This document shows positions 624-29,539 of a stretch of 31,644 nt of DNA, piece by piece. The stretch lies in the IMG/VR virus record IMGVR_UViG_2770939491_000001. The stretch is one strand, 5' to 3'. Position numbers and translations under genes: made by a program. The stretch's first letter is position 1. Each line of letters begins with the position of its first letter. This DNA is from an uncultured virus (IMG/VR IMGVR_UViG_2770939491_000001) (Duplodnaviria > Heunggongvirae > Uroviricota > Caudoviricetes). The notes under the pieces are model-generated. The model did not search any database. It worked only from the letters and a program-made list of their open reading frames with translations, and had not been told where the DNA came from.

Positions 624-790
624 TGGGCTGGCGTAAACGGCGTTTCACGATCGAGGAGTTGAAGTTGGCATACGACGTCGGTGCGGCGCATCAGCTGATC
701 CTGGAGCGGATCGGCGAGGACAACGAGACGACGTCGTTCGAGCGCCTGGTGGCGGACCTGCGGGGTTCGGTTCGAAAGGGAGCGGTGTGA
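623..790 (+). CDS. Small hypothetical protein, 55 aa (MGWRKRRFTIEELKLAYDVG...)
   Basis: Not in the ORF track; TGATG overlaps with both neighbours. Confidence 0.7.
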   Translation: MGWRKRRFTIEELKLAYDVGAAHQLILERIGEDNETTSFERLVADLRGSVRKGAV

Positions 791-1353
791 TGGCAAAACC
801 GTTGCTGTACCTCGATGTCGACGGCCCGCTCAACCCGTATGCCGCGAAACCTGAACGCCGCCCAACTGGGTACGACACTCACCGGTTGATGCCTGCGGCG
901 TGGCTCGAGCGGCACCCGAACACACCACCGGACCGGGTGAAGCCGTTGCGGGTGTGGTTGAACCCGGCGCACGGTCCCGCCTTGCTCGCCCTGGCCGACG
1001 TGTTCGAGCTGGTGTGGGCGACGACGTGGGAGCACGAGGCGAACGAGTTCATCGGCCCGTTGATCGGGTTGCCGGAGTTGCCGGTGGTGGAGTGGGCGGA
1101 GGGCCGGCCGAAGGTGAATCGGGCTGGCGTCTACTGGAAGACACCCCAGCTGATCGAGCACGCGGCGGGTCGACCGTTTGCGTGGGTTGATGACGAGATC
1201 GGCCGATACGATCGGGAGTTCGTTTCGACCTATCACGGTCGTGCTGCGCTTCTGCACTACGTTGGCCCTGCGAAGGGGTTGCTCGACGAGGACTTCGCGG
1301 TGCTGCGGGAGTGGGGAAATGGTCAGACCGGCGTGGCAGGATCGGCGGCGTGA
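790..1353 (+). CDS. HAD-superfamily protein (Swiss-Army-knife RNA-repair HAD type)
   Basis: Motifs LYLDVDGPL, LVWATTW and FAWVDDE. Confidence 0.85.
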   Translation: MAKPLLYLDVDGPLNPYAAKPERRPTGYDTHRLMPAAWLERHPNTPPDRVKPLRVWLNPAHGPALLALADVFELVWATTWEHEANEFIGPLIGLPELPVVEWAEGRPKVNRAGVYWKTPQLIEHAAGRPFAWVDDEIGRYDREFVSTYHGRAALLHYVGPAKGLLDEDFAVLREWGNGQTGVAGSAA

Positions 1354-3270: not shown

Positions 3271-4683
3271 TCATGCCGGGGACAGCGTCAGCGGGTGCAG
3301 CATGTCCCGCAGCTCGACGACTGGTCGGCTGTCGCCGCACTCGGCTGCCCGCTGGTACACCTCGGAGACCTTGGCCTGCACACGATGCGAGCTGGTTTTG
3401 CCGACGTCCTGGATCGCGACTTCACCGAGTCGGCGGGCTTCCCCGTATTCGCCTTGGATGAGGCGCGCTTCGGCAATACCGAGCCGGTCGAGCGCGCTTG
3501 AACGCCACCGTTCGGGTCGACGCAGCGCGATCGCCGAGGTGATGGCTTCGGCGGCCTCGTCCGCGAAGTCGGCTTCCTTGCGGGCCAGTTCGAGCAGCCG
3601 CCCGCCGAGGGTGCCGGACAGTTCGGCGGCGTCGAAGTAGTGCAGCCAGTACGGGTCGTCGTCCGGGCGCGCCTTGGCGAACGCGGCGTGAGCGTTGTCG
3701 GCGGCGCGATGAAACGCAGCGGGACGGCCGAGCTTTGCGTACGCCCACGCTTCCCGCGTGTACAGCAGCGCGCGCGTGGTCGGGGTAATCGACCGACCGA
3801 CGACGTCCTGTGCGAGGCGGACGAGTTCGAGTGCGTCGTTGGCACGGGCGTGCGTGTAGGCGATCCGATCGACGCCGTCGCCCTCGGGTTCGAGGGTGAG
3901 CATTTGGCGGGCGAGGCCGGCGAGCCCATTGGCGAACAGTGCAGGGTCTCCGGCCTCGCGCGCGGATCGGATGGACAGCATGTAGTAGCCCTGCGCGGTG
4001 TGCTGGTCGCCGGAGTCCCACGACATGGTGGCCGCGGTCTCGGCGAGCAGGGCACGGATGTGGCCGAGCCGTTGGCGGGTCGCTGGACTGGTGGCCGCAG
4101 TGACCATGTCGTTGACCTCGGAGAGTTGTCCGACGACAGCTTTGCGGCGCAGGCCGCCACCGAATTTGTCGTCCCATTCCCGGAATAGGCGGGCGGCGTG
4201 TTCGAGTTCGTCGAGTTCCTGTGTGCCGGTGCCGGTGATGACCGGCGCGGGCGTGGCGGTGTCGCGTTGTTGGCGAAGCCACCGTTCCAGTGGTTCGAGG
4301 AGGTACGTGCCGACGACTACCCCGAACAGGGTGGTGGCGGCTTCGCGGCGATCCACGAGAAGGTCCTTCCGTGCGAGGTCGTCGGTGACGTCCTCGCAGG
4401 TTGACTTCCAGATGGCCGGGTCGTCGTCGAGTTCGAGGGCGCCGGGCGCGACAGCCCGCTTGGTCTGCAGTCGATGGAATTGTGCGCGCTGGGCTGGTGT
4501 TGCCGCAGCGAGCACGCTGTTGAGGCGTTCGGCGTATTCGGGGAGCAGCGTGATCGTTTCTCCGCGTGTGCACCACTTCTTGATGGTGTTGATGTGGATT
4601 CCGGCGCGCACAGAGAACCGGTTGTGTGACAGCCGCAGGGCATCACGCAGGTCCTTCGCGTCTGCTCCCGTCCAGACATTCAT
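3271..4683 (-). CDS. XRE-HTH transcriptional regulator with helical TPR-like C-terminus (actinobacterial NsdA-like architecture)
   Basis: N-terminal WTGADAKDLRDALRLS...GIHINTIKKW; DDKFGGG, AQGYY...AREAGD, PYWLHYFDAAEL. Confidence 0.8.
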   Translation of the reverse strand: MNVWTGADAKDLRDALRLSHNRFSVRAGIHINTIKKWCTRGETITLLPEYAERLNSVLAAATPAQRAQFHRLQTKRAVAPGALELDDDPAIWKSTCEDVTDDLARKDLLVDRREAATTLFGVVVGTYLLEPLERWLRQQRDTATPAPVITGTGTQELDELEHAARLFREWDDKFGGGLRRKAVVGQLSEVNDMVTAATSPATRQRLGHIRALLAETAATMSWDSGDQHTAQGYYMLSIRSAREAGDPALFANGLAGLARQMLTLEPEGDGVDRIAYTHARANDALELVRLAQDVVGRSITPTTRALLYTREAWAYAKLGRPAAFHRAADNAHAAFAKARPDDDPYWLHYFDAAELSGTLGGRLLELARKEADFADEAAEAITSAIALRRPERWRSSALDRLGIAEARLIQGEYGEARRLGEVAIQDVGKTSSHRVQAKVSEVYQRAAECGDSRPVVELRDMLHPLTLSPA

Positions 4684-4714
4684 AGTCGTCTCCTGGGCCG
4701 GTTGTAAGTGGTGG

Positions 4715-4762
4715 TGTACCAGCGTGTACCGAGCATGTACCGGAACAGGTTCCGCGTGTACT
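4715..4762. repeat. Phased TGTAC(C/T) direct repeats, probable operator
   Basis: Copies at 4715, 4725, 4736 and 4757 in the divergent intergenic region. Confidence 0.65.
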
Positions 4763-4884
4763 TACGTGGTCTTCCGGGGGAACTGGTGGCACGCCAAGGT
4801 TGGAAATGCAGGCGACGTCAGTTCGACCTTCATCACTGACGTCGCCAGCTTTCCAATCTGCTACCTCTCACTCTAGGTGGTCCA

Positions 4885-5112
4885 ATGCTGACCGGCCGCA
4901 CCATATTTCGAACAAGTAGTGATCAGACGCTGCTGATTTGCACTGTCGACCCCGGCCCGTTGTCCGTCGAGCAGGCGCATCGTGCGATGCAGGTTCATCT
5001 GGAGTGTGATGTGCTCACGTGCCGTTGCCGCCGCCGTGCCCGCGCAACGTTGGTTGAGCTGAAACGGATGGTGCTCGACGACCGCGCCGTCCGCGTGGAG
5101 CTGCGGCGATGA
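4885..5112 (+). CDS. Small His/Cys protein (AHRAMQVHLEC...CRCRRRA)
   Basis: First gene of a coupled operon divergent from the XRE gene. Confidence 0.7.
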   Translation: MLTGRTIFRTSSDQTLLICTVDPGPLSVEQAHRAMQVHLECDVLTCRCRRRARATLVELKRMVLDDRAVRVELRR

Positions 5113-5339
5113 CGTTGACCCGTTGCCAGGACTGGATCCTGCAGAGCCTGTGCTCTGTGGCTCGACGGGCGCCTGTCACTGCCGCCGACCTCGCCGACCA
5201 GCTGCAGAACCAGGCACACACCACAGAAACCTATCTGCGGCAGCTCGAGGACATGGGTTTGGTTCGGTCGCACCAGGTTTCAGGTGAGGTCGGTTGGCGC
5301 CCGTCCGGTGACGGGCTGATGGTCGGGACAGTGCTGTGA
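5109..5339 (+). CDS. Small winged-helix DNA-binding protein
   Basis: VTAADLADQL...TETYLRQLEDMGLVRS; ATGA overlap. Confidence 0.75.
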   Translation: MTLTRCQDWILQSLCSVARRAPVTAADLADQLQNQAHTTETYLRQLEDMGLVRSHQVSGEVGWRPSGDGLMVGTVL

Positions 5340-5710
5340 GCGACGCGATCGTGCTCGAAGGCATCGCGATCGGGTACCTCCGCACCGATGTGTCCGGTGA
5401 TTCTTTCGACCTGCACAAGGCGGCGATCGAGCACCTGGCCAAACGGTGGGGATACGACGTGAAGGAAATCGTCCTCGCCGACGAACACACCCCCGAACCC
5501 ATCGAGTACCTGAAAGCCATCGCCCGCGTCTCCAAGGCAGATGCTGTGTTCACCCTGTCGGCCCGTCATTTCGACGGTTGCACCGTCCCCGCTGACTTGA
5601 TCGCGGTCTGTGACGTCGTCACGGTCGCGGACAAACAAACGTTCGCGCGACAAATCCCGTCGCCGTTCGAATTCCGAAGCGTTACCCCACCCAACAAGGA
5701 GACGAAGTGA
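5336..5710 (+). CDS. Serine-recombinase/resolvase catalytic-domain-like protein, no DNA-binding domain
   Basis: AIGYLRTDVS start resembles resolvase GYxRVS; only 124 aa. Confidence 0.55.
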   Translation: MSDAIVLEGIAIGYLRTDVSGDSFDLHKAAIEHLAKRWGYDVKEIVLADEHTPEPIEYLKAIARVSKADAVFTLSARHFDGCTVPADLIAVCDVVTVADKQTFARQIPSPFEFRSVTPPNKETK

Positions 5711-5844
5711 CAAAGCCCCTCGCGCAGCGCGGCAACTCGAACGCCAGCGGCGGCGCCCAGTTTGAGGGTTTCGAAGGTTTGTACGGCACAAGCCCCCGCG
5801 AAAGCGCGCAGCACTCCGTATTCAACTCGGGCGACGCACAGTAG
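5707..5844 (+). CDS. 45-aa peptide (MTKPLAQRGNSNASGGAQFEGFEGLYG...)
   Basis: AAGGAG RBS, GTGA overlap, followed by a terminator; not in the ORF track. Confidence 0.55.
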   Translation: MTKPLAQRGNSNASGGAQFEGFEGLYGTSPRESAQHSVFNSGDAQ

Positions 5845-5896
5845 CCCACCTCGACTCCCCCGACGCTTCCGTCACACGAATGCCGGGGTGATGGTG

Positions 5897-5935
5897 ACCC
5901 CCGAGACCCTTCCACCACACCCGGGTCTCGGGGGT
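5897..5935 (+). terminator. Terminator-like hairpin
   Basis: ACCCCCGAGACCC ... GGGTCTCGGGGGT, 13-bp stem. Confidence 0.65.
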
Positions 5936-6024
5936 TGCTGCCTCTATCCCCCAAACACAATCCCGGTGGATACGATGATCCAAGCACGAACCGACCTCGC
6001 CACCACTCGCGAAAGGTTCACACC

Positions 6025-6522
6025 GTGGGCGAAGACCGACCCTACTCAGAAATCGAACTGCGCCGCCTGGCGAAACAGCAGCGGTCGCCGGAGTTCCGGG
6101 CGTGGCTGGACCGCGAAGCCGACGACCTGGCGCAACTCCTCGTCGAGATCCCTGCGCTGCGCGACCTCGACGACCCCTGGACCGTCGCCGGGTTCGACGC
6201 GATCGAGAACGCTGCAATGCAACGCCTACCCAACCCCGGCCCGACCGTCACCGACGAGGAGATGGACTACCTCGCGTTGTGCGCCCGCGGGATCGGCCAC
6301 ATCTTCCTCCGCCGCATGGGTGTCGGCAAGTGGGTGTGGGTCAACCTCTACGAAGGCCTACCAACCGGGCCCGCGATCGAATTCCCAGGTCACTCATTCT
6401 GGACCGATCCAGGCCAGTCGATCCGCAACGTGGTGTTCGACCGGAAACCCGGGGTCTTGGCGACTGAACTCGAAGGTCTCGCCGCCTGGTCCCGCGAGGC
6501 ACCGAAGTACTCGCTGGGGTAA
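6025..6522 (+). CDS. Putative immunity protein for the downstream nuclease
   Basis: GAAAGG RBS + GTG; pattern PWTVAGFDAIE...ARGIGHIFLRRMGVGKW resembles helical toxin-immunity proteins; adjacent to the toxin-like gene. Confidence 0.55.
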   Translation: MGEDRPYSEIELRRLAKQQRSPEFRAWLDREADDLAQLLVEIPALRDLDDPWTVAGFDAIENAAMQRLPNPGPTVTDEEMDYLALCARGIGHIFLRRMGVGKWVWVNLYEGLPTGPAIEFPGHSFWTDPGQSIRNVVFDRKPGVLATELEGLAAWSREAPKYSLG

Positions 6523-6552
6523 CCAGAGGATCCTTTCTCGTTGGGGTCGGCG

Positions 6553-8391
6553 ATGACCGGCCCCGCGGAGAACGACGACCACGGTGACGTTGTCCCACGG
6601 ACCGATCGTGGGCTGACCGAGGCCGGCGATGCGGGCCACAACGCATACGTGCAAGCCAAGCTCGCGGAGGCAGCCACCCAGCTCGACAAGATCCGTGGGC
6701 CGTTGGACTGGCAACGTCAGGTGGAGTTGTGGGGAGACCGGAAACTCCTCCACGACATGATGATGCACGGCTACCAAGAGCTCCATGGCCGCACCCCCGA
6801 ACTCGGGTGGGTACACGAACACCCAGCGACAACGTCGCTCGGCGCCAGACGCCACGACGCCGCGCAAGTCGTCGAACGCGCAGGGATACCCGTCGTCCAG
6901 AAGACCACCGAGTTCAAAGCTGGTTGGGCAAGCAAAAAGGAAGGGCTCGAGCAGCTCAAAAAGGAACGTGAGCTGCTTCGCACAGACCCCAACCGGAAGC
7001 TCAGCGAGTACATCATCCGGGCGGCGCACCCGCCACACCCGGAGGTCGTCAAAGAAGCTCGGCAGCTGGCTCAAGACTTCCCTGGCCGGTTTGTCCATAT
7101 CGAGCTGAACGAGCGCGAGTTCGAGCGTGCGGTGGAAGCTGGCCGTCCGATTGTTGAGAAGCAGCTGATGCACAAGCTCGGCCATTTGGTCGAGAAGCTC
7201 CGCAACGCCCCGGAATTGAAGACAGCGCCGCGCGCGCTCGAGGGATTCGTCCGGGAGATCGAGATGGCGAAGGAGCGAGGCGACCCGATCGGCCTGGAAG
7301 TCCTTGCGGGCGCACAGATCGAGCTGGCGTCGCTGATCGAGGTCGACAAGCAGATCACCCGTGAGCAGGACAAGATCGCCCGCGAAGCCGCCAAGCTGCG
7401 GCTGAAAGAGGCGCAAATCGTCGAGCGGGTCCAAGCCCAGCAACGCGCGGAGCGTGAGCAGCAGTTGCTGAAGCTCCTCGAAAAGGTCGACCGGGAGGTC
7501 GTGATCGCCGCGGTGAAGGAAGCCCGCACCTTGGCGGCGCCGGCGAAGGGTTTGGATCTGGCTGTGGAGCCGGGGATGGATCCGGAGCTGGCGGCGATGA
7601 TGCAGCAGATGCACGGTGTGATCGCGAGCCAGGGGTTGGAGGCGAGGCAGAGTGAAATGCTGGAGTATCTGCCGATGCCCACACCCCGGCACCGTGAGCT
7701 TGCCGGGTTGGTGCTGGCTCAGCAGGCCGAACAGCCGGGTAAGCCGGTGACGGAGGCTGTTGCGGCAGCTGAGGAGAAGCTGAAGGAACGCGAGGCGAAG
7801 GAGCTTGAGCAGGCGAAAGCTGTTGAGGCGCAGCAGGTTCGGGAGCGTGAGAATCGTGAGTTGATGGAGCGGATAGTCGATGCCCACAACAAACGGTTGG
7901 AGCAAGCCGCACGGGATCAAGGGCAGCGTGTCACCCATGATCGGATGGATGACGCAGCGTGGAAAGACAGGGTGCCCAAGATTGCGGAGTCGCTGAAAAT
8001 GGATCCGCAGCGCCTATTGGAACGGGGTGTCGACCCGCAGGTCGTTGACGCGATCGCCCGCGGAGCTTTCCGGACCGACGATAAGGCCCGTGCGGTCGTC
8101 GTCGAGATCAACGGTGCCGAAAGGTGGGTCGCCAACGACAGCAAAGAGATCGCGATAGCGACCCAAATTCAGCAGGTTCAGGCCGGAATGAACTTGGGAG
8201 AGGTTCATGTCCGCGCACTGGCTGATGCTGGTGGTGGCCGTGGCGCGGTGGCGCTTTCGCGGGAGAAGCTGCAGAAGCAGAGGGAAGAAGCGGAACGGCG
8301 AAGGGTACGGGAAGCCGAACAGGTTCCAGAACGAACCCGGTCTGAAAGAGGGGACCGAGGGACCGAGCGAGGAATTGAACGAGGGCGGTAA
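6553..8391 (+). CDS. Putative toxin/effector: N-terminal restriction-endonuclease-fold (PD-(D/E)xK) domain, coiled-coil body, charged C-terminal tail
   Basis: RRHDAA...TTEFKAG...EQLKKE motif; E/Q/A/R-rich helical stretches; ends RTRSERGDRGTERGIERGR. Confidence 0.65.
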   Translation: MTGPAENDDHGDVVPRTDRGLTEAGDAGHNAYVQAKLAEAATQLDKIRGPLDWQRQVELWGDRKLLHDMMMHGYQELHGRTPELGWVHEHPATTSLGARRHDAAQVVERAGIPVVQKTTEFKAGWASKKEGLEQLKKERELLRTDPNRKLSEYIIRAAHPPHPEVVKEARQLAQDFPGRFVHIELNEREFERAVEAGRPIVEKQLMHKLGHLVEKLRNAPELKTAPRALEGFVREIEMAKERGDPIGLEVLAGAQIELASLIEVDKQITREQDKIAREAAKLRLKEAQIVERVQAQQRAEREQQLLKLLEKVDREVVIAAVKEARTLAAPAKGLDLAVEPGMDPELAAMMQQMHGVIASQGLEARQSEMLEYLPMPTPRHRELAGLVLAQQAEQPGKPVTEAVAAAEEKLKEREAKELEQAKAVEAQQVRERENRELMERIVDAHNKRLEQAARDQGQRVTHDRMDDAAWKDRVPKIAESLKMDPQRLLERGVDPQVVDAIARGAFRTDDKARAVVVEINGAERWVANDSKEIAIATQIQQVQAGMNLGEVHVRALADAGGGRGAVALSREKLQKQREEAERRRVREAEQVPERTRSERGDRGTERGIERGR

Positions 8392-8406
8392 GTTGTCTGC
8401 CCGGCA

Positions 8407-8446
8407 GTCCGGCCGGCGGTCGTACTATTGCGAACGCCGGCCGGAC
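8407..8446. terminator. Bidirectional terminator-like hairpin
   Basis: GTCCGGCCGGCG ... CGCCGGCCGGAC between convergent genes. Confidence 0.7.
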
Positions 8447-8452
8447 CTCTGC

Positions 8453-8635
8453 CTATCTACGGAGCATCGGGCGAGTTGGAAGCCCAGCTTCTTTTCGTTC
8501 GATGTGATCGGCGAGCATCACGATGTCGAGCAGTTTCCTGGTGATCATGTTTCGCTGCTCAGCCGACAGCGGTCCGAGGTCTCTTTCGAATTCCCGCATG
8601 TACTTGTCGACCGCCACTGATTTATCCCTGCTCAT
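8453..8635 (-). CDS. Small hypothetical protein, 60 aa (MSRDKSVAVDKYMREFE...)
   Basis: GAAAGG RBS upstream of the ATG at 8635. Confidence 0.6.
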   Translation of the reverse strand: MSRDKSVAVDKYMREFERDLGPLSAEQRNMITRKLLDIVMLADHIERKEAGLPTRPMLRR

Positions 8636-8879
8636 GATGAGCCTTTCACTGATTGGTGGCTGCCCGGCCCTCAACTCGATCCACGATACGACGATCTCGG
8701 TACGATCAACAGCCCCGAACGGATGCTCGACCGTGTCGTTCGTCTCGTTACCCACAGGTAGCTGAGACGAAGCCCGGCAAACCTCCTGTTCCACAGCCCA
8801 TGTCAGTGGTTCCGGGTACGGTAGCCGCCGATGCCCAACCCTGGGCAGTCGCACAGCAACATCCGATAGAAGGACACAC

Positions 8880-9293
8880 TTGCCTGAGTACGTTGAACCA
8901 CCTGGCGCTCGATACAACGACTACATCGGTGTCGGCGCGATCGAAGACAGCCTCGTCAACACCAGTCTGAACCTGAAGGAACTGGCCGGTCTGAATGACG
9001 GCGATTGGACCATCGTCGGAATTGAGGCTGACGCCTACAGCCACGGTGACCCACCACGTTGGACCATCGGCGTATATGCGTTGAACCGCCGCGAATACAA
9101 CGTGACTTCGTTCGAAGACTGGCAAAAGCTTCAGGCCGAACGTGGTGCTCTGCCCGTGAAGCATATCCTCCTGCACGACGTCGATTTCGAAACGCTCGTC
9201 CGCACAACCAAGGGCGTGCACCTGCAGTTCTTGAACCCGAACGTCACCAAGTTGGAGATCGTCGAGCGCGGGGATCATCCACCGCAGGACTGA
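8880..9293 (+). CDS. Hypothetical cargo protein, 137 aa
   Basis: GAAGGA RBS, TTG start, globular composition, hairpin after the stop. Confidence 0.75.
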   Translation: MPEYVEPPGARYNDYIGVGAIEDSLVNTSLNLKELAGLNDGDWTIVGIEADAYSHGDPPRWTIGVYALNRREYNVTSFEDWQKLQAERGALPVKHILLHDVDFETLVRTTKGVHLQFLNPNVTKLEIVERGDHPPQD

Positions 9294-9398: not shown

Positions 9399-9983
9399 TC
9401 ACGCGGCCTTCCACGACTTACGCTGCCTGATCCGAATGCACTCGCGGCAGCAACGCCGGTCAGGCTGGCCAGGAGGTGAGTAGACGTTCTCGCCTGACAG
9501 GCTGTGCCCTCGCTTGCACGCCACCTGCCTGCGCTCCGGCGCGACATGCGCCCCATCAGGTTTCCACGGCTCCCAGTCCTGGTCTTCTTCACGCTGCGCA
9601 TTGCATGAGTTGCAGGCAGCGACCAGGTTGTCTGGGTCGTTGTTATGGATATCCCAGTCCAGGTGGTCACCGGTCAGGCGACCGTGAGATCCGTACGGCA
9701 GTTCCCAGCTGATGTCCTGGCCGCACCAGTGGCATGGATGCGTTCCGCTACCAATCTTCGAATAGAGAATGACCCGATGTTCAAGCGCGCGGCCGTACTT
9801 GTCGGCTAGCGGGTGCCCCCAAATAGTGATCTGACGGTACCTCTTGAGCGCACTCGGGCGTCCGGACATCAGCGGGCTGCCGTACCTGCGAAGCTTCTTG
9901 TAGTGCCTGTTGCAAAGCCCACGGGCAATCACTCGACCCGCGCAGTCTTGGACGGAACACATCGCAACATTCTTCACCTCCAT
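9399..9983 (-). CDS. HNH endonuclease with N- and C-terminal Zn motifs
   Basis: CSVQDC...GLCNRHY; EHRV...CHWC; DHLDWDIHNNDPDNLVAACNSCN; CKRGH...CREC. Confidence 0.9.
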   Translation of the reverse strand: MEVKNVAMCSVQDCAGRVIARGLCNRHYKKLRRYGSPLMSGRPSALKRYRQITIWGHPLADKYGRALEHRVILYSKIGSGTHPCHWCGQDISWELPYGSHGRLTGDHLDWDIHNNDPDNLVAACNSCNAQREEDQDWEPWKPDGAHVAPERRQVACKRGHSLSGENVYSPPGQPDRRCCRECIRIRQRKSWKAA

Positions 9984-11291: not shown

Positions 11292-11674
11292 CACGCCGCC
11301 CCGATGTTCGGGAAATTGCCAGATTCCGTGTCACACGGAACATCGGGGTTTCCTGAACATTTCGGAAAGTCGACGCACTCAGCGCGCCCGTTGACATGGA
11401 GCATGTGCTCAGGAACGAGGCACCCGCAGGCCGCCCGCCTCATCACTCCGAACGTGCGCGGTTTCGCGGCGGCTTCGGCAAGCTTCGGCGCCGGATCGGC
11501 CTGGTCAACCTCAGCCATCAACTGGTCGAACTGGTCGGCGGGCAACGTGACGTATCGCGCCGAGCCGGTGACAGCCGAGAACGCCTGTGCCAGTAGGTCG
11601 TGACGGATTCGCCAGTCGGCTGCCTCTGCCTGTGCACGCGCGAGCTCGGCGCGCAACTGCTTCTTCGTCGTCAC
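11291..11674 (-). CDS. Phage hypothetical protein with C-terminal Cys cluster
   Basis: Coupled ORF. Confidence 0.7.
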   Translation of the reverse strand: MTTKKQLRAELARAQAEAADWRIRHDLLAQAFSAVTGSARYVTLPADQFDQLMAEVDQADPAPKLAEAAAKPRTFGVMRRAACGCLVPEHMLHVNGRAECVDFPKCSGNPDVPCDTESGNFPNIGAA

Positions 11675-12168
11675 GCTGCCACCGCCTCAACTGGGTAGCA
11701 CTCGCCACGCACAACGCGACCGATCGTCGTTGTCGACACCCCGAACTCGGCCGCCAGACGACGGTAGGGCTCGCCTCGTCGACAGCGGATTGCTTCTACC
11801 TCAGCGTCGGTCAACTTGGCGGACCAGCGAGCTGCTCCCGTCGGCTCTGTCCCGTCCCGCTTCTTGTCCGCGATGTTCTCCCGGACCGTGCCCATCCGCA
11901 GTTCCGAAAGTCGGTTGTCGGACTGACCGTTGGGGCCATGCCGGACATGCATTCCATCGGGAATCGGGCCGACGAACGTCTCGTACACCATGCGGTGGAT
12001 GTAGTAGAGCTTCCGGTCGTTCGACCCGTTGCTCAACAACACGGTCAGGTACCCGTTTTTCAACGCCACTGGGCGCCGAACCCGGCCTGTCGATACGCGG
12101 CGGACACGGCCGAGGTCCGAGACCTCGTACCGATCGTCGGAAGGGAAAGGCTTCCACTGCTCACCCAC
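11671..12168 (-). CDS. NUMOD4-HNH endonuclease with C-terminal HTH
   Basis: WKPFP..YEVSDLGRVR; YIHRMV...VRH...DNRLSEL; KLTDAEV...LAAEFGVS. Confidence 0.92.
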   Translation of the reverse strand: MGEQWKPFPSDDRYEVSDLGRVRRVSTGRVRRPVALKNGYLTVLLSNGSNDRKLYYIHRMVYETFVGPIPDGMHVRHGPNGQSDNRLSELRMGTVRENIADKKRDGTEPTGAARWSAKLTDAEVEAIRCRRGEPYRRLAAEFGVSTTTIGRVVRGECYPVEAVAA

Positions 12169-12538
12169 GGTTGGTACCTCCGCTCAGCGTCAGCACCTCT
12201 GCCTCGATGAGGTTGAGAGCGCCGGTGTAGTCGTTCGTCAAGACGACGCGCTCGATGGCGCCGTAAACGCCGTCGGCGTGCGGGATGACGTGCTCGACAA
12301 CCAGAGAGCGAACAGTGTCCTCATGTCCCGCAAGGATCGCCGGAGTGCCGTCCTCGACCGCCCATCGCAGATATACGACTGCCTTTCGGAGGTCCTCTGC
12401 ACCGTTCTTCTCGGCAAATCGCCAGCAGTACTTCACCGCGTTGCCCGCGGTGAACGTCAAATGGCGTGTGATGGTGATGCATTCGCAGGTGAAGCGGCCC
12501 GTCGAGTAGTGGACGGGGTGGTTCACGACGTCGGTCAT
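12161..12538 (-). CDS. DUF3310-domain protein
   Basis: DVVNHPVHY...ECI...GNAVKYCWR...KNGAEDLRKA. Confidence 0.88.
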   Translation of the reverse strand: MTDVVNHPVHYSTGRFTCECITITRHLTFTAGNAVKYCWRFAEKNGAEDLRKAVVYLRWAVEDGTPAILAGHEDTVRSLVVEHVIPHADGVYGAIERVVLTNDYTGALNLIEAEVLTLSGGTNRG

Positions 12539-12723
12539 GCGAGGAGCTCCGTGATGTCGAGAGTGGTGTATCCGGCGGTGTGCGCGCCGTCGCTCATGCG
12601 GCGGACACTGTGTTCGGGCGAGGGGTTGGTGCGCAGCCAGGTGATCAGCTCGTGCTTGACGGTGAACGCGGCTACCACGCCCCACCCGTCTTTGACGAGG
12701 TAGATGTATGTGGAGCGGGCCAT
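12535..12723 (-). CDS. Small phage protein (MARSTYIYLV...AAFTVKHEL)
   Basis: Coupled ORF, TGATG overlap. Confidence 0.75.
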   Translation of the reverse strand: MARSTYIYLVKDGWGVVAAFTVKHELITWLRTNPSPEHSVRRMSDGAHTAGYTTLDITELLA

Positions 12724-12884
12724 CAACGGCGCCGGGTGATCTTGCGGGCTTTTCGGGCGGCACGGTTGCGCACCCGCCGGCGCTGCACTTCGGCTTCGGG
12801 GACGGTGCCCTGGTACACGTGCTTGCGCTGCAGGCCGAACAAGATGGCGCGCGCGTACGGGGTATCGAACAAGGTGGTGCTCAT
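12723..12884 (-). CDS. Small basic phage protein (MSTTLFDTPYARAILFGLQRKHVYQGTV...)
   Basis: Hand-translated; overlaps on both sides. Confidence 0.7.
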   Translation of the reverse strand: MSTTLFDTPYARAILFGLQRKHVYQGTVPEAEVQRRRVRNRAARKARKITRRR

Positions 12885-13903
12885 GCTGCTTGGTCTCCTT
12901 CGACCGGTTCGTCACGGCGCAGGTTGAGAATGAGAGCGGGGTCGTCGAGGATCCCGGCGGTGAGCTCGCTGAACGGTGTCAAACGGTTGGCGCGGATCCA
13001 CTCGTCGACGTCGTCGCCGGGTAGCCACCGCTGGACTCGGATTGCAAGCGGAGAGGGCTCGGGCTGCGAAGTGCGCGGCCGGTACACCCAGCGGCGGGTG
13101 ACCGTGTCGTACGCGGCGCGCTCGTAGGTGACGGCGTTCAGCTCCATTGGGGGCGGGCAGTCGAAGTCCGCCGGTGTGAATGTCACCGGGGCCACGGTTT
13201 CGACTCGGTGGCCGACGTTCGGGTTGACCTCACGTCCGTGCGCATGCCCACCTTCGAGCACGCCGCCGAGCGGGGCCGGTTCCCACCATGCGACCAGACT
13301 GCTGATCCCGTCCTGCCGGTACTCGGTGCGGATCTCTGCGGCATCCAGTTGCACACCGGAGTATCGGCGCGCGACCTCTTCGAAGAAGCTGCACCGCACG
13401 TGTTCTCGCAGGTGCTCCGCGTACGCCGCGTCGGGCGTATCCACCTGGCATCGGAGGCCACGGAGGCTGTCGACTTCAGTCATCTCGATAACCCCGCGCG
13501 ACGAGTTGTCGTCGTACGGGTCGTCGGGCAGCGGCCAGGTGCCGAGGATCTCGCTGTGCCATGCGGCGACGCGGCGCATGGTGTCAGCGAAAGTGCCCCA
13601 CCCGGTGTCGATTCCGGCGCGCAGGTCGACGGGCGGCGTGAATTCGCCCTCGAAGTCGGAGCCGGGGCACAGCACTTCGCTGTCGTCGTCGGCGTACCGG
13701 TAGTCGGGATCGACGTAGCCAGCTCGCCGCATCGCCCGCATGCGCGTGGTGATGGCGAGCCCGTGCCAGTCAGCGTCGCACCACGGCTGCGGGCAGGTGA
13801 CCTGGTTGATGTTGTGGTCGTACCCGGAGGATTCCTTTCCGAGTTGCCAGTCGACGAGTTCGTCGATGGCGTCCACGATGTCGCGGTCAGGCATCGGCGT
13901 CAC
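12881..13903 (-). CDS. Phage hypothetical protein, 340 aa
   Basis: Long coupled ORF; DIVDAIDELVDWQL...C...WHGL N-terminus. Confidence 0.75.
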   Translation of the reverse strand: MTPMPDRDIVDAIDELVDWQLGKESSGYDHNINQVTCPQPWCDADWHGLAITTRMRAMRRAGYVDPDYRYADDDSEVLCPGSDFEGEFTPPVDLRAGIDTGWGTFADTMRRVAAWHSEILGTWPLPDDPYDDNSSRGVIEMTEVDSLRGLRCQVDTPDAAYAEHLREHVRCSFFEEVARRYSGVQLDAAEIRTEYRQDGISSLVAWWEPAPLGGVLEGGHAHGREVNPNVGHRVETVAPVTFTPADFDCPPPMELNAVTYERAAYDTVTRRWVYRPRTSQPEPSPLAIRVQRWLPGDDVDEWIRANRLTPFSELTAGILDDPALILNLRRDEPVEGDQAA

Positions 13904-18382: not shown

Positions 18383-18820
18383 TCAGCCCTCCAATGCTTT
18401 TCGCTGGGTGTAGCGGCGCTGTGCCAGCTTTCGACACTCTCGGCAATACCGAGTTCGAGAGCCGGATCGGGTGTACGTGTTCTCAGCGGTCATTGCGTGC
18501 CCGTTTGCGCAATGCGCATACTCGGGCAGCGGTTTTCGCGCCATGTTCTCGGCGAACGTGACGGCTTCCAGGTGGTCTATGTTCACGCAATCGCGGTGTT
18601 GACAGCCGCGGGCCGCAACATGGTCGATCGTGATGTCGTCCGCAAGAGGGCCGTGGTGGTGTTCCCAGACGACTCGGTGGACCATTGTGAGGCGGCGGTT
18701 CACGCTGATGCGCCCGTAGCCTCCGTTCGTGGAGCGATCGCCGGTGAACCGAAGGCAACTGCCATCGTGGACAGTTCGCGCAAGGACCCGCTCGTAGGGG
18801 CTCGTCAGGACCTTCGGCAT
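18383..18820 (-). CDS. HNH endonuclease with C-terminal Zn finger
   Basis: GYGRI...VHRVVW...IDH...CVNIDHLEAVT..EN; HCANGH...YCREC. Confidence 0.92.
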   Translation of the reverse strand: MPKVLTSPYERVLARTVHDGSCLRFTGDRSTNGGYGRISVNRRLTMVHRVVWEHHHGPLADDITIDHVAARGCQHRDCVNIDHLEAVTFAENMARKPLPEYAHCANGHAMTAENTYTRSGSRTRYCRECRKLAQRRYTQRKALEG

Positions 18821-19122
18821 CAGTCCACCGCCTCGTAGGTGACGGCGAATATGTCGCGGCGGCATGGGTAGAACTCGCGCGCGATGCCGCGAATTACCCA
18901 GTCACCCGGCGATGCCTGGATCCACCCTTCGAGTGTTCGGATGGCGATGGCGTGCCCCTTTGCTGTTCCGGGGCAACCCATGTCGTGCGAGCAGTGGTAG
19001 TTGGCGAGACCGCCGTTGTCGAGAATCCACTGGATGACCGCGGTAGCGCCTTCTGCGGTCCCGTCCCACTCCATGGCGGTGATGACGACGGGCTTCTTGC
19101 GGTACTGCTTGGCCTCAGCCAT
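18820..19122 (-). CDS. Conserved phage protein (YRKKPVVI...IRTLEG...GDWVIRG...FYPC)
   Basis: Motif pattern widespread in phages. Confidence 0.85.
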   Translation of the reverse strand: MAEAKQYRKKPVVITAMEWDGTAEGATAVIQWILDNGGLANYHCSHDMGCPGTAKGHAIAIRTLEGWIQASPGDWVIRGIAREFYPCRRDIFAVTYEAVD

Positions 19123-21551: not shown

Positions 21552-22223
21552 TCACGCCGCCGCCCGACTAGCGCGGCGCCGCGGTGCCGCACTCGTCGCT
21601 TCAGGCCGGTCAAGGTCGCCCTCGTCCCACTGAAACGGCAACGGCCAATGCTGCTTCCGCCCGAAGTTCCTGGCGCGCAACGACGGACCAGGCTCGAGCT
21701 GCAACCGGGCGAACACGTCAACCACCCGCCGATGCTTATCGACGGTGATCAACTCCGGTCGGGTACGCAACAGGTTGGACACACCCGTCTCCCCCATCCC
21801 GCACTCACGCGCCAACGTCGACATCGGCCAACCCGCAGCAACAAGCGCCTGCAGGCGGCGAATCGCCCCGACAGCGGGCATGTGGTCCCCTGCCGCGGCA
21901 ACTGCGTGCGCGGCGCCGGGGATCTCGACAGCAAGGAGCCGCTTCGCGGTGCTCTCCCAAATCTTCTCGGCCGGACCACCACGTTTGCCAACCAGAAGCG
22001 TGCCGAGAGAACTGCGCGGGATACCTGAGAGCTTCACGATCTGACGGCGACTCACACCAGCCGCGATCAACGCCAGGACGTGTTGGCGGACAGGCTCAGC
22101 GTCGACCAGAACCGATTCCCAGCGACCGTAGGCGGTCTGGCGATCCAGCACGGTCTGGTAGCAGGACTTGCACAGCTTCCGACGCAGCGGCTTGTATTCC
22201 TTGCCGCATCGGGTGCAGCTCAC
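21552..22223 (-). CDS. Tandem-HTH phage protein, paralog A, with N-terminal Zn finger
   Basis: CTRC..LCKSCY; DAEPVRQH; GAIRRLQALVAAGW; GGAGG RBS before GTG. Confidence 0.8.
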   Translation of the reverse strand: MSCTRCGKEYKPLRRKLCKSCYQTVLDRQTAYGRWESVLVDAEPVRQHVLALIAAGVSRRQIVKLSGIPRSSLGTLLVGKRGGPAEKIWESTAKRLLAVEIPGAAHAVAAAGDHMPAVGAIRRLQALVAAGWPMSTLARECGMGETGVSNLLRTRPELITVDKHRRVVDVFARLQLEPGPSLRARNFGRKQHWPLPFQWDEGDLDRPEATSAAPRRRASRAAA

Positions 22224-22285
22224 CGGGCACCTCCCGGAATGGCCCCCAGATTCGCCGCAGCCGTCCCCGGGTAACCGATCCCCTG

Positions 22286-22301
22286 TCGAACGCCTGTTCG
22301 A
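22286..22301. promoter_or_regulatory. Second LexA/SOS box, TCGAAC-GCCT-GTTCGA
   Basis: Exact consensus, about 60 bp upstream of paralog A. Confidence 0.7.
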
Positions 22302-22428
22302 CCGTCTCTGTGGACGACAGGCGGGCGCACGGCCAACAACAGCTCCGGCATCGGACCGCAGCAGAACAACACGGACACTGCACACAACTGCGTCCCATGT
22401 ACACAGTTTTGTTTGCTAATGGTTCTGT

Positions 22429-24345: not shown

Positions 24346-25068
24346 TCAGGCAGGCTTGGCGGCTTGTGCGAGGGCGCGTTTGTTGGCTTTGGAGCGGGCG
24401 ACACCGGCGCGGTGGCATACCCGGCAGGCACGGGATCCGTCGATCCGTCGCATGGTGTTCTCGGGGCTGTAGAGGTGCCCGTGCCTGCATTCGCCGTAGA
24501 CCGCGACCCAGTCCGGTTCGGCCAGTGGGTGATCGATGTCGATGCCCTCCCAGGCCAGCGGTGGGACGTGGCCTGCACGGCGTGCGGTCGAGGCGACGTG
24601 GTTGCTGGGTCCACGGGTTGCCGACAATTCCTCGTAGAGGGCTTTCACGGCGAGCCATCGCGTGTAGCTGGTGTGGCATTGCGTGAACAGTTGGCTCACC
24701 AGACTGCTGTCGATGCCGAGGCGTGCGGCGAGTACCCGGCGGGGCCAGCCGAGCGCGGAGAGCGCACCGAGGCGACGGGCCGCGCCAATTGCGAGGACAC
24801 GGTGCTGTGCTGGGTGTGGATGGTGGGACACCGCGAGGATTCGGCTGGCGAGGTGGGTGTTGACCTGCTGCTGATTCGGAATGTTCTGAATCGTTTGGCG
24901 GTCGACGCCGACGACGTAGCCGACCATCTGCGGTGTGACGTTCAGGGCGGCGAGGACGTCGAGATGCCGCTGCACCGGTGCGGCGTTGGTGTAGAACGCG
25001 ATGCCGTTGGCTTTGCGCCACCGGTACCGCTTGGTGTCGATGCTGCGGCTTCCGAGGGGCGTGGTCAT
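24346..25068 (-). CDS. Tandem-HTH phage protein, paralog B, with C-terminal CxxGH...CRxC finger
   Basis: GAARRLGALSALGW; PPLAWEGIDIDHP. Confidence 0.8.
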   Translation of the reverse strand: MTTPLGSRSIDTKRYRWRKANGIAFYTNAAPVQRHLDVLAALNVTPQMVGYVVGVDRQTIQNIPNQQQVNTHLASRILAVSHHPHPAQHRVLAIGAARRLGALSALGWPRRVLAARLGIDSSLVSQLFTQCHTSYTRWLAVKALYEELSATRGPSNHVASTARRAGHVPPLAWEGIDIDHPLAEPDWVAVYGECRHGHLYSPENTMRRIDGSRACRVCHRAGVARSKANKRALAQAAKPA

Positions 25069-25892
25069 GCTGCCTCCCGCAGTTCCCGCCGGCGGCGCAC
25101 CAGCGCCTGGTCGGCACCGTCCATGCTGATGTTGAGTGCCGCAGCGAGGCGGGCCCGCAGCCAGCCGTGCGTGATGGCGTGGTCGATGACCGCGATACGT
25201 TCCGGGCCGCGCAGTGGGTTCGCGTCCGGGTAGGTATGGCGGCCTTCGATGATGCGCTGCAGCAGCACTTCGTCGACACAGCCGGTGGCCGGTTCGGCAT
25301 CGAGAATCGGGGTGCTATCGGGGTGGTCGATATCGATTCCCTCCCACGCCAGGGGTGGTGCGTAGCCGCGGCGCGCGGATCGTGTTTTGCCGATAGCTGA
25401 AGGCCCCACCTGGTGGGACAACAGGTCATAAACAGCGCAAACTTGTTGGAAGGTTCGGCCTTTCACGGATTTGGAGCGCAGGATCTTGTCAACGCGCTCT
25501 TGTGTCCAGCCCAGGTGAGTGCCGATCTGGGCTTGTGTGTGGCCAGCGGCTTGCAGTGCCTGGATGCGTCGCTGGGTGCCGATCGCTGGGACGTTTCGTG
25601 ATTCTTGGTCGGGGGTGGGGATGTGGGTGACTGCGAGGACTCGTGCCGCGTACTGCCTGCGTGCGGTGGAGTACTTTCTTAGGCGGAAGTCGCGAATGGT
25701 GTTCTGGGTGAGTCCTGCGGCTGCGGCGACGGAGGAGTCGTTGAACCCGATCGAGACCAACCAGTTGACGTGGTCCTGTGCTGGTGTGGCGTCGATGATC
25801 GGGGATGGTAGGCCGCGGTACAAGCGCATTGCTCGCAGTTTGTGGTTGCGGTATTGCCCCTGTTTGGGAACGGTGGTGTGGATTGTGCTCAT
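25065..25892 (-). CDS. Tandem-HTH phage protein, paralog C, with an extra C-terminal HTH
   Basis: GTQRRIQALQAAGH; PPLAWEGIDIDHP; VDEVLLQRIIEG. Confidence 0.8.
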   Translation of the reverse strand: MSTIHTTVPKQGQYRNHKLRAMRLYRGLPSPIIDATPAQDHVNWLVSIGFNDSSVAAAAGLTQNTIRDFRLRKYSTARRQYAARVLAVTHIPTPDQESRNVPAIGTQRRIQALQAAGHTQAQIGTHLGWTQERVDKILRSKSVKGRTFQQVCAVYDLLSHQVGPSAIGKTRSARRGYAPPLAWEGIDIDHPDSTPILDAEPATGCVDEVLLQRIIEGRHTYPDANPLRGPERIAVIDHAITHGWLRARLAAALNISMDGADQALVRRRRELREAA

Positions 25893-28878: not shown

Positions 28879-29077
28879 GCGGTGACCTTGTAAACTTTCC
28901 CGTACATCCGTGAGCCCACTAAATAGCCCTGAACAGGGGAAACGCGAAAGTGTGCAGCCCGTCATAACGATGTAATTACAGTTGACCGTGGACGGTAGGC
29001 CATCCTTACCGATACCATCGGCAGACTGTGTAAAGCTGCCTGTCAACCGGGTAGCCCAATCACCGGAAGGTGCACCC

Positions 29078-29539
29078 GTGACGACCCCTGAAATCAGCAT
29101 CCCGCCGACCACAAACCGATGGTGGGAGTACGTGCAGGAGATCTGCCGCGCGCACGGAATCAGCACAGCGGAGTTCTGCGCCCGCATCGGAATCACCCGG
29201 TCCGCGAGCACGCCCTGGACGAACGGGAGCGCACCTCGCCCTGAGATCGCACGTCGAGTCGCCATCGTCTTCGAGCGCCCGCTACCCGAGGTCTTCGTCC
29301 AGGCAGGTTTCGCCACCTGGGAGGAGATGAAGATAGACCCCGACGAGCAACCTGCCCCCATCGAGCCATCAGACGACGAGCTCGCAGAGCTGGTCAGACA
29401 TCGGTTCGCCGCCTACCGATCGAAACTCACCAGCAGCGGCGTCGGAACCCTCGCGGTCGTCGACGGCGAAGCGGAGACCGAGGCTGCGCCAGCGCCGAGG
29501 AAGAACACCGTTCGCCGGCGACCGAAAGAACGGAACTGA
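29078..29539 (+). CDS. XRE-family CI-like repressor
   Basis: WWEYVQ...STAEFCARIGITRSASTPWTNGSAPRPE...EVFVQAGF; divergent from the early operon. Confidence 0.82.
   Translation: MTTPEISIPPTTNRWWEYVQEICRAHGISTAEFCARIGITRSASTPWTNGSAPRPEIARRVAIVFERPLPEVFVQAGFATWEEMKIDPDEQPAPIEPSDDELAELVRHRFAAYRSKLTSSGVGTLAVVDGEAETEAAPAPRKNTVRRRPKERN

Follow-up and report, generated by a model that had tools for sequence, protein, structure and literature searches.

What is the function of the two-gene unit at positions 6025..8391 of a virus-derived stretch of DNA? The stretch, 31,644 nt from an uncultured member of the Caudoviricetes (IMG/VR record IMGVR_UViG_2770939491_000001) and referred to as the window throughout, lies at one end of a contig of 49,131 bp in a 7.0-Mb Nocardia genome. 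The unit comprises two + strand genes, up165 and big612, which encode proteins of 165 and 612 amino acids (aa). The initial annotation had taken big612 for a nuclease effector that is delivered to neighbouring cells through a channel of the conjugation or type IV secretion kind, and up165 for the cognate immunity protein. Our analysis supports a predicted nuclease fold, an obligate partner and a conserved tail, whereas it lends no support to delivery by conjugation or type IV secretion. Instead, we tentatively read the pair as an intracellular toxin-antidote, abortive-infection or phage-exclusion module that is carried as a phage moron, a reading that we regard as slightly more apt to be wrong than right.

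The unit has clear boundaries of its own. The two + strand frames are open from 5935 to 6522 and from 6541 to 8391, and the real starts are the GTG at 6025 for up165 (6025..6522) and the ATG at 6553 for big612 (6553..8391), because the N-termini of the homologues agree with them: all 19 up165 homologues begin with M/V-GEDRPY, and most of the 27 long-form relatives of big612 begin with MTxP. The gap between the two genes is 30 nt, and a GAAAGG ribosome-binding site (6011..6016, +), with purine-rich columns conserved in the alignment, lies 9 nt upstream of the GTG. As the initial annotation had noticed, hairpins flank the unit on both sides. The upstream hairpin (5897..5935), a perfect 13-bp stem with a 13-nt loop, closes the preceding three-gene unit; as RNA it folds with −34 kcal/mol (z −5.3), a value equalled by 0 of 200 shuffles, and it is common to four of 11 aligned loci, namely the window and the loci L003, L007 and L011. 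The downstream hairpin (8407..8446), with 16-nt arms that are 94% complementary, lies between the pair and convergent − strand genes, and its RNA folds with −40 kcal/mol on the + strand (z −5.9) and −37.5 kcal/mol on the − strand (z −5.1); none of 200 shuffles folds as well. It is likely to be a two-way terminator. A scan of the upstream region with the sigma-70 consensus revealed no site. However, about 50 nt upstream of the up165 start there is a TACGAT (5971..5976, +), and all 11 upstream regions in the alignment keep its T147, A148 and T152, while the surrounding DNA is otherwise poorly conserved. TAnnnT is the actinobacterial −10 consensus, and TACGAT is thus a candidate −10 promoter element of the pair. 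The pair points the other way from the phage operon on its flanks. The term moron denotes a transcription unit of this kind in a phage genome, independent, reversed in orientation and equipped with its own promoter-like element and terminators.

Is big612 a nuclease? Its catalytic-motif stretch (6847..6966, +) contains RRHD (residues 99–102), EFKAG (120–124) and QLKKE (134–138), and in 27 of 27 long forms R99, H101, D102, E120, K122, A123, G124, Q134, L135 and K137 are invariant, so that the motifs highlighted by the initial annotation are real and conserved. A bare D...ExK pattern is, by itself, trivial by chance. Here it is meaningful because it is invariant across a divergent family and lies on predicted strands 2 and 3. 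In an AlphaFold2 model of residues 1–250, built from the 27-sequence alignment, the mean predicted local distance difference test score (pLDDT) was 80.3, with block means of 86–97 across residues 61–200. Residues ~60–205 (6730..7167, +) are modelled as helix, three strands, helix, strand, helix, strand, which includes the core alpha-beta-beta-beta-alpha-beta topology of the PD-(D/E)xK superfamily, with D102 within strand 2 (97–109) and E120 and K122 within strand 3 (112–122). A Foldseek search of the PDB with this N-terminal model returned nothing below E 1e-3, and the fold scores are moderate; the top rows were almost all restriction-fold nucleases, that is, BamHI (E 2e-3), the R2 endonuclease domain, BbvCI, Can2, MspJI, FokI and Cap4. 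We conclude that residues ~60–205 of big612 are predicted to fold as a PD-(D/E)xK nuclease with conserved catalytic residues, in agreement with the N-terminal fold proposed initially.

The domain belongs to a wider family that is not represented in the current libraries. When 1.84 billion representative proteins were searched with a profile of the N-terminal domain, 71 matched, 20 of them at E up to 1e-10; most are 240–560 aa long and have the nuclease domain at the N-terminus. In an alignment of 47 of these sequences (22–56% identity), E120 and K122 are the sole invariant columns, and D102, Q134 and L135 are conserved in at least 90%. A Pfam scan of 63 of the 71 proteins revealed none above the curated cut-off and only sub-threshold chance matches, and no Pfam family matched residues 1–250 of big612 up to E 10. 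The PHROG, PADLOC, NCBIfam and Pfam models gave no match to either big612 or up165, and a search of the PDB sequences with the big612 profile produced nothing meaningful (best malyl-CoA lyase, E 0.19). One homologue of big612 carries a precomputed PF25980 assignment. Identity with Tox-REase-7 was considered and rejected: it was suggested only by an Atlas lead (score 0.78), and the PF15649 hidden Markov model (HMM) gave 0 candidates in the genome. In 401 actinobacterial genomes there was one real match to Tox-REase-7, too few for a profile comparison.

The nuclease domain is followed by a charged, helical, coiled-coil-like body (residues 246–593; 7288..8331, +) with a non-helical break near residues 335–390 and a conserved C-terminal segment. 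Of residues 246–612, 53% are Glu, Arg, Lys, Gln or Ala, the source of one homologue calls it a 'coiled-coil domain-containing protein', and the pLDDT of the Atlas model of the whole protein is 0.62. The protein ends with the tail RTRSERGDRGTERGIERGR (residues 594–612; 8332..8388, +), which consists of (D/E)RG repeats and terminates in RGR. A loose pattern of this tail, whose background is high in the Arg/Glu-rich sequence of such proteins, was found in 22 of 27 long forms, so that the type of tail is conserved as the initial annotation implied, and in 40 of 60 wider-family proteins of at least 230 aa; ends of the type RG[ILM][ED]R.R, often RG[ILM]ERGR, are visible in long and short forms alike. 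The last 20 residues are a mixture of Arg and Glu, with seven Arg/Lys versus five Asp/Glu and a net charge of about +2. The RGR end presumably resembles the AT-hook-like RGR of Lsr2.

How strictly are the two genes linked? The partner was searched with two profiles, A8 for the long-form family plus intermediates and A7 for the open reading frames (ORFs) upstream of short-form genes. The two partner families are linked by hhalign (A8 versus A7, probability 97.5%, E 5.5e-12); with the narrow close-family profile A3, no link to A7 was obtained (probability 0.7%). Of 35 distinct loci, 32 have the partner directly upstream, in the same orientation as the nuclease gene. The intergenic gap ranges from a few to about 60 nt (3–4 nt in several loci), and the pairing is retained down to 22–30% identity of the nuclease domain. 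All three partnerless loci are damaged: one has an N-terminally truncated nuclease gene behind an ORF that is transposase-like by eye (L024), one has the nuclease gene at a contig end (L027), and one has a nuclease fragment with two stop codons (L029). Among the 35 distinct loci there is no intact nuclease gene without a partner. Kinship among the loci inflates every count. The upstream gene is an obligate partner of the nuclease, and the linkage postulated initially holds. The identities of partner and nuclease co-vary across nine loci (r 0.73, Spearman 0.70, p 0.036), which is only indicative because the loci are related.

There are also cases of decay and of exchange. At locus L011 of N. 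rosealba, at least two frameshifts disrupt the nuclease gene, Met replaces K122 and the 3' part is lost, with the partner intact. In a 205-aa protein of Nocardia fluminea (P0043), the partner is fused to the last ~45 residues, that is, the tail, and the nuclease body is gone as if deleted in frame. The genes neighbouring the pair at L011 are 83–89% identical to those of the window, whereas the partner is only 64% identical, and thus the cassette has been exchanged on its own. The genome that contains the window has a second, diverged copy of the pair on contig C45 (60–62% and 68% identity), and two copies are present in several other species, too.

The partner itself is less easily classified. 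up165 is predicted to be mostly helical with one beta-hairpin and to have a DUF3806-like fold. All of its homologues that are named are from Nocardia, and UniRef labels three of the 19 as DUF3806. No Pfam family matched up165 up to E 10; on a paralogue, DUF3806 (PF12713) scored 9.5 bits versus a cut-off of 21, and 28 partner proteins gave nothing significant in Pfam (Imm71 at E 0.011 in one of the 28). The nearest feature neighbours of up165 in the ESM Atlas, which are leads only, were the YwmA, DUF3806 and DUF6278 clusters (scores 0.87–0.90). The only fold that up165 resembles is the C-terminal domain of PDB 3hlz. A search of the viral folds in BFVD found no meaningful match (best E 0.28), the partner profile found nothing meaningful among the PDB sequences (cellobiose epimerase, E 0.16), and a literature search on the term 'DUF3806' found no papers. 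A weak PF12713 match near a coupling-protein gene on contig C9 was dismissed as noise, as no family member is encoded there.

A functional clue comes from SitI2 of Myxococcus, which is reported to hit both PF19794 (DUF6278) and PF12713 (DUF3806) (PMC12390754). In an earlier study, the SitA2 toxin domain is described as a distant relative of a CdiA DNase that is toxic in the cytoplasm, SitA2 constructs did not inhibit E. coli, and sitI2 is a candidate immunity gene, cognate rescue having been shown for SitI1 and SitI3 (PMC5562445). By analogy, the DUF3806/DUF6278 likeness to SitI2 lends indirect support to an immunity-like role of up165. For 3hlz, one paper describes the N-terminal domain as Tsi3-like (PMC3792639), and another treats the locus BT_1490 as a B12-binding protein of the BtuG/BtuH type (PMC8941943). 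We draw no inference about a B12 role from 3hlz.

Where does the pair occur? Among 267 Nocardia genomes, 98 encode the nuclease domain, with as many as six matches in a single genome. Of 401 genomes sampled from the order, two contain it, both of them Nocardia (one of 97 genera), and the named homologues of big612 are all from Nocardia. Four long-form loci lie in phage regions (the window, L003, L007 and L011), and four lie in small islands of the chromosome whose end is marked by tRNA-Val (L004, L009) or tRNA-Ser (L005, L010); at L004, an integrase fragment separates the nuclease gene from the tRNA gene. Short-form genes are found downstream of lysis or tail genes (L058, L061), 4.5 kb from a serine integrase (L059), near an AbiEii toxin gene (L062) and in small islands with helix-turn-helix (HTH) regulators (L054–L056). 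In most loci, XRE or NsdA-like regulators of about 390–650 aa adjoin the pair.

How could such a pair work? Temperate Nocardia phages would carry it as a moron, and it would be left behind in their remnants. big612 would be a PD-(D/E)xK nuclease that acts on DNA or, possibly, on RNA; the coiled-coil body probably renders it dimeric or elongated, and its Arg/Gly (RG)-rich tail may bind nucleic acid or a partner. In lysogens, in which the pair would be expressed, up165 would be translated first off the shared message, bind the nuclease and keep it inactive or gate it. Once this balance was lost, the nuclease would cut DNA and so halt the invader or the cell itself. What upsets the balance could be a second phage that infects the cell, the disappearance of the element or some other cue, with the neighbouring XRE/NsdA-like regulator perhaps as the relay. 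We arrive at the toxin-antidote reading because the unit has its own boundaries, is oriented opposite to its surroundings, sits at prophage edges and survives in remnants, and because the cassette is exchanged independently, occurs in diverged copies, has the partner gene first and loses the nuclease while the partner is kept. The nuclease fold with its strongly conserved catalytic residues and the strict pairing count in its favour, too, as does the precedent of prophage cassettes beside attachment junctions in related bacteria. It is also in line with this reading that neither protein contains a signal peptide, a transmembrane segment or a secretion domain. Several observations weigh against it. 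PADLOC matched 0 families up to E 0.1 for nuclease and partner; a 612-aa toxin with a coiled coil of ~350 residues is unusual for a toxin-antitoxin pair; the strict pairing would be expected just as much of any enzyme with two obligate subunits; the cases in which the partner was kept and the nuclease lost are two only; and the unit of the window is located among recombination and replication genes, so that a role in phage DNA metabolism is conceivable. We still consider a toxin-antidote, abortive-infection or exclusion module inside the cell to be the most economical mechanism, with a confidence that falls a little short of an even chance.

The alternative proposed initially is that big612 is an exported interbacterial toxin, guided to neighbouring cells by its tail through a conjugation/type IV route, with up165 protecting the producer; we include other routes here, such as type VII secretion. 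The Tox-REase-7 lead would suit this model, as would the Atlas neighbours of up165, which include both Pfam families hit by SitI2 (PMC12390754), the Arg-rich, conserved tail, and the toxin-immunity cassettes that prophages of M. abscessus bear at attachment junctions (PMC8092301). Also, coupling-protein and relaxase genes are present elsewhere in the genome. However, they map to other places: the coupling-protein-like genes are on contigs C26, C5 and C9 and the relaxase is on C5, while C38 and C45 have neither. The ORFs scanned, from the window, eight long-form loci (99 ORFs) and ten short-form loci (123 ORFs), 19 loci in all, include no gene for a relaxase, a coupling protein, VirB4 or an FtsK/TraB-like protein, so that the co-occurrence with relaxases or coupling proteins expected by the initial annotation did not materialise, and tblastn against 72,556 plasmids yielded no match. 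Nor do the proteins look like secreted ones. No W-x-G motif, signal peptide, transmembrane segment or secretion-related Pfam domain was found, and neither protein has a hydrophobic stretch (maximal Kyte-Doolittle mean over 19 residues 1.42 for big612 and 0.90 for up165), which agrees with the initial remark that no WXG/LXG, RHS or signal peptide is visible. There is also no trafficking domain, the Tox-REase-7 HMM was without candidates in the genome, and the tail, where a type IV substrate would be expected to have a positively charged, unstructured signal, is rich in Arg but also in Glu (seven Arg/Lys and five Asp/Glu in the last 20 residues). The N-terminal toxin domain and the upstream partner are the reverse of the order in polymorphic toxins; this 'inverted architecture' is correct as an order of genes and domains, but it is better read as an ordinary antidote-first, toxin-antitoxin-like operon in a phage moron. 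The linkage that the delivery model predicted was not found in the loci scanned, and we rate export as quite improbable.

Two further explanations would keep the proteins inside the cell. The pair could be a two-subunit enzyme of phage DNA metabolism, active in recombination, host-DNA degradation or cutting linked to replication or packaging, with up165 as structural or specificity subunit. The strict pairing suits an obligate complex, and the contig of the window is full of phage DNA-metabolism genes. Yet the pair runs opposite to the flanking operon between its own hairpins, is swapped independently of its neighbours, persists in tRNA-side chromosomal islands without other phage DNA-metabolism genes and keeps the partner where the nuclease is broken; moreover, blastn and tblastn against 50,697 phage records, a set from which near-identical records may be absent, found no relative of the pair. 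Such an enzyme seems unlikely to us. A non-catalytic protein that tethers or organises DNA, composed of a nuclease-like DNA-binding head, a rod and a minor-groove RGR tail, with up165 as an adaptor and a role in segregation or silencing, would account for the long coiled-coil-like body and for the presumed likeness of the tail end to Lsr2. Mere DNA binding would, however, not be expected to keep all the expected catalytic residues (nearly) invariant over a deeply diverged family, and chromosomal remnants need no segregation function, so that we give this explanation very little credence. The toxin-antidote reading can also be sharpened into an undescribed, Nocardia-wide, phage-borne defence or exclusion module, in which a cytoplasmic inhibitor of the DUF3806/DUF6278 superfamily would restrain a rod-tethered nuclease, equipped with an AT-hook-like RG tail, until phage attack or loss of the element released it; in this specific form, it is a possibility that we view with considerable doubt.

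The pair can be compared with several known systems. Like the PD-(D/E)xK nucleases BstEII, BamHI, SfsA and NucS and the nuclease domains of Can2, Cap4 and Card1, big612 has the predicted core topology with Asp on strand 2 and Glu-x-Lys on strand 3. In contrast to the known members, it has no sequence-level family match in Pfam, NCBIfam or the PDB, and it has a coiled-coil-like body and an RG tail instead of their sensor or DNA-recognition domains. From CdiA-CT/CdiI (4g6u), TseT/TsiT (7dym), Tox-REase and SitA2/SitI2 it differs in its N-terminal toxin domain and the upstream location of the partner. Unlike restriction-fold polymorphic toxins, it has no trafficking domain, lipobox, Pfam toxin match or linked secretion genes, and downstream of big612, where polymorphic toxins have the immunity gene, there are a hairpin and convergent − strand genes.

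Closer parallels exist among prophages of the Mycobacteriales. Prophages of M. abscessus are reported to have lysogenically expressed toxin-immunity cassettes at attachment junctions, a precedent for the position of the pair, with toxins that contain WXG-100 motifs and C-terminal toxin domains (PMC8092301), both of which big612 lacks. Two-gene prophage defence systems are described for mycobacteriophage Sbash and Gordonia phage CarolAnn (PMC6426596, PMC6426606). Like these cassettes, the pair is a small, self-contained unit at the edge of a temperate phage, by tRNA sites, an integrase or a regulator, and it varies among otherwise similar prophages. Unlike them, it consists of unrelated proteins and includes no WXG-100 motif or ESAT-6-like gene. 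With type II toxin-antitoxin operons it shares the antidote-like gene in first and the effector in second position, the short gaps, the carriage by mobile elements, the presence of several divergent copies in one genome, and first genes left orphaned next to a decayed second gene. In contrast to these operons, big612 is far larger and has a coiled-coil body, and up165 has no recognisable DNA-binding domain.

If the toxin-antidote reading were correct, more than one third of the sampled Nocardia species would bear phage-delivered nuclease modules, often in several copies, that current domain and defence libraries do not recognise. The nuclease head, rod and RG tail would represent a new effector architecture, and up165 would be an antidote fold new to the toxin-antitoxin and anti-phage fields. 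The module would help to explain phage resistance and prophage retention in Nocardia, a genus with few known phages, and would provide a testable role for DUF3806/DUF6278/YwmA proteins of unknown function. If, in addition, the more specific defence or exclusion version held, an immunity fold of secreted toxins would have been reused as an intracellular antitoxin. If the reading is wrong, the pair is still a clean, conserved two-subunit nuclease.

Individual loci deviate from the common arrangement. At L053 (G538:C1:5233900-5253500), one chromosome has two short-form nuclease genes (6934-8076 and 11945-13087) that are 5 kb apart and enclose a CYTH-domain gene. At L060, a gene for an NYN-domain (RNase-like) protein (7853-9040, +) overlaps the 3' end of the short-form nuclease gene, and this protein may be a third component of that variant. 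The large XRE-HTH/NsdA regulators (about 390–490 aa) adjoining the pair have a long C-terminal part that resembles tetratricopeptide repeats (TPR), for example at L004:3968-6649, L005:2296-3591, L009:5491-6810 and L056:8824-10125, and sometimes two of them are arranged in tandem. Their size and HTH + TPR build recall, we presume, peptide-sensing phage regulators.

In IMG/VR, the entire 49,131-bp contig (locus L051) is catalogued as a viral genome. Its DNA-metabolism genes encode a YqaJ/RecE-like exonuclease, a DnaQ-like exonuclease, a replication initiator, RusA, an RlaP-type nucleotidyltransferase and several HNH endonucleases; no virion gene families were found in the scanned parts of the contig. 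Most genes of the window are on the − strand. The exception is a + strand block, composed of three small genes followed by up165 and big612, which faces a divergent − strand gene for a 470-aa NsdA-family TPR-like protein (3271..4683, −). The latter matches NCBIfam NF053720.1 with 207.6 bits (cut-off 75) and phrog_10886 'transcriptional regulator' at E 2.2e-42, and it is perhaps the regulator of the island. The three small genes upstream of the pair (4885..5710, +), which are variable among loci, encode proteins of 75 aa, 76 aa (a winged-helix protein with weak winged-HTH matches in Pfam) and 124 aa, and homologues precede the pair only in L003, L007 and L011. By eye and without a family match, the N-terminus of the 124-aa protein (5336-5710, +) resembles the catalytic domain of serine recombinases (GYLRTDVSG), and a relative of this protein was spotted by eye upstream of the short-form pair at L039.

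Where the long − strand operon begins, a second repressor-like gene (28982-29536, +; phrog_3949 'transcriptional repressor', E 1.3e-10) is oriented divergently from it and may be the true immunity repressor of the phage, in which case the block from 3271 to 8391 would be a separate island. The early region is unusually dense in HNH endonuclease genes and paralogues of phrog_1590 (9399-9983, 11671-12168, 18383-18865, 21552-22385 and 24349-25892, all on the − strand); the phrog_1590 paralogues number four copies, adjacent or close by, with HTH and HNH-like parts. Lastly, phage regions that bear the pair repeatedly encode a HAD domain of the 'Swiss Army Knife RNA repair' type (window 787-1350, +; L003:3458-4015; L007:1204-1887), and further along the contig, at L045, there are genes for the RlaP nucleotidyltransferase and a metallophosphoesterase. 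The three proteins hint at an RNA-repair gene set of these phages.

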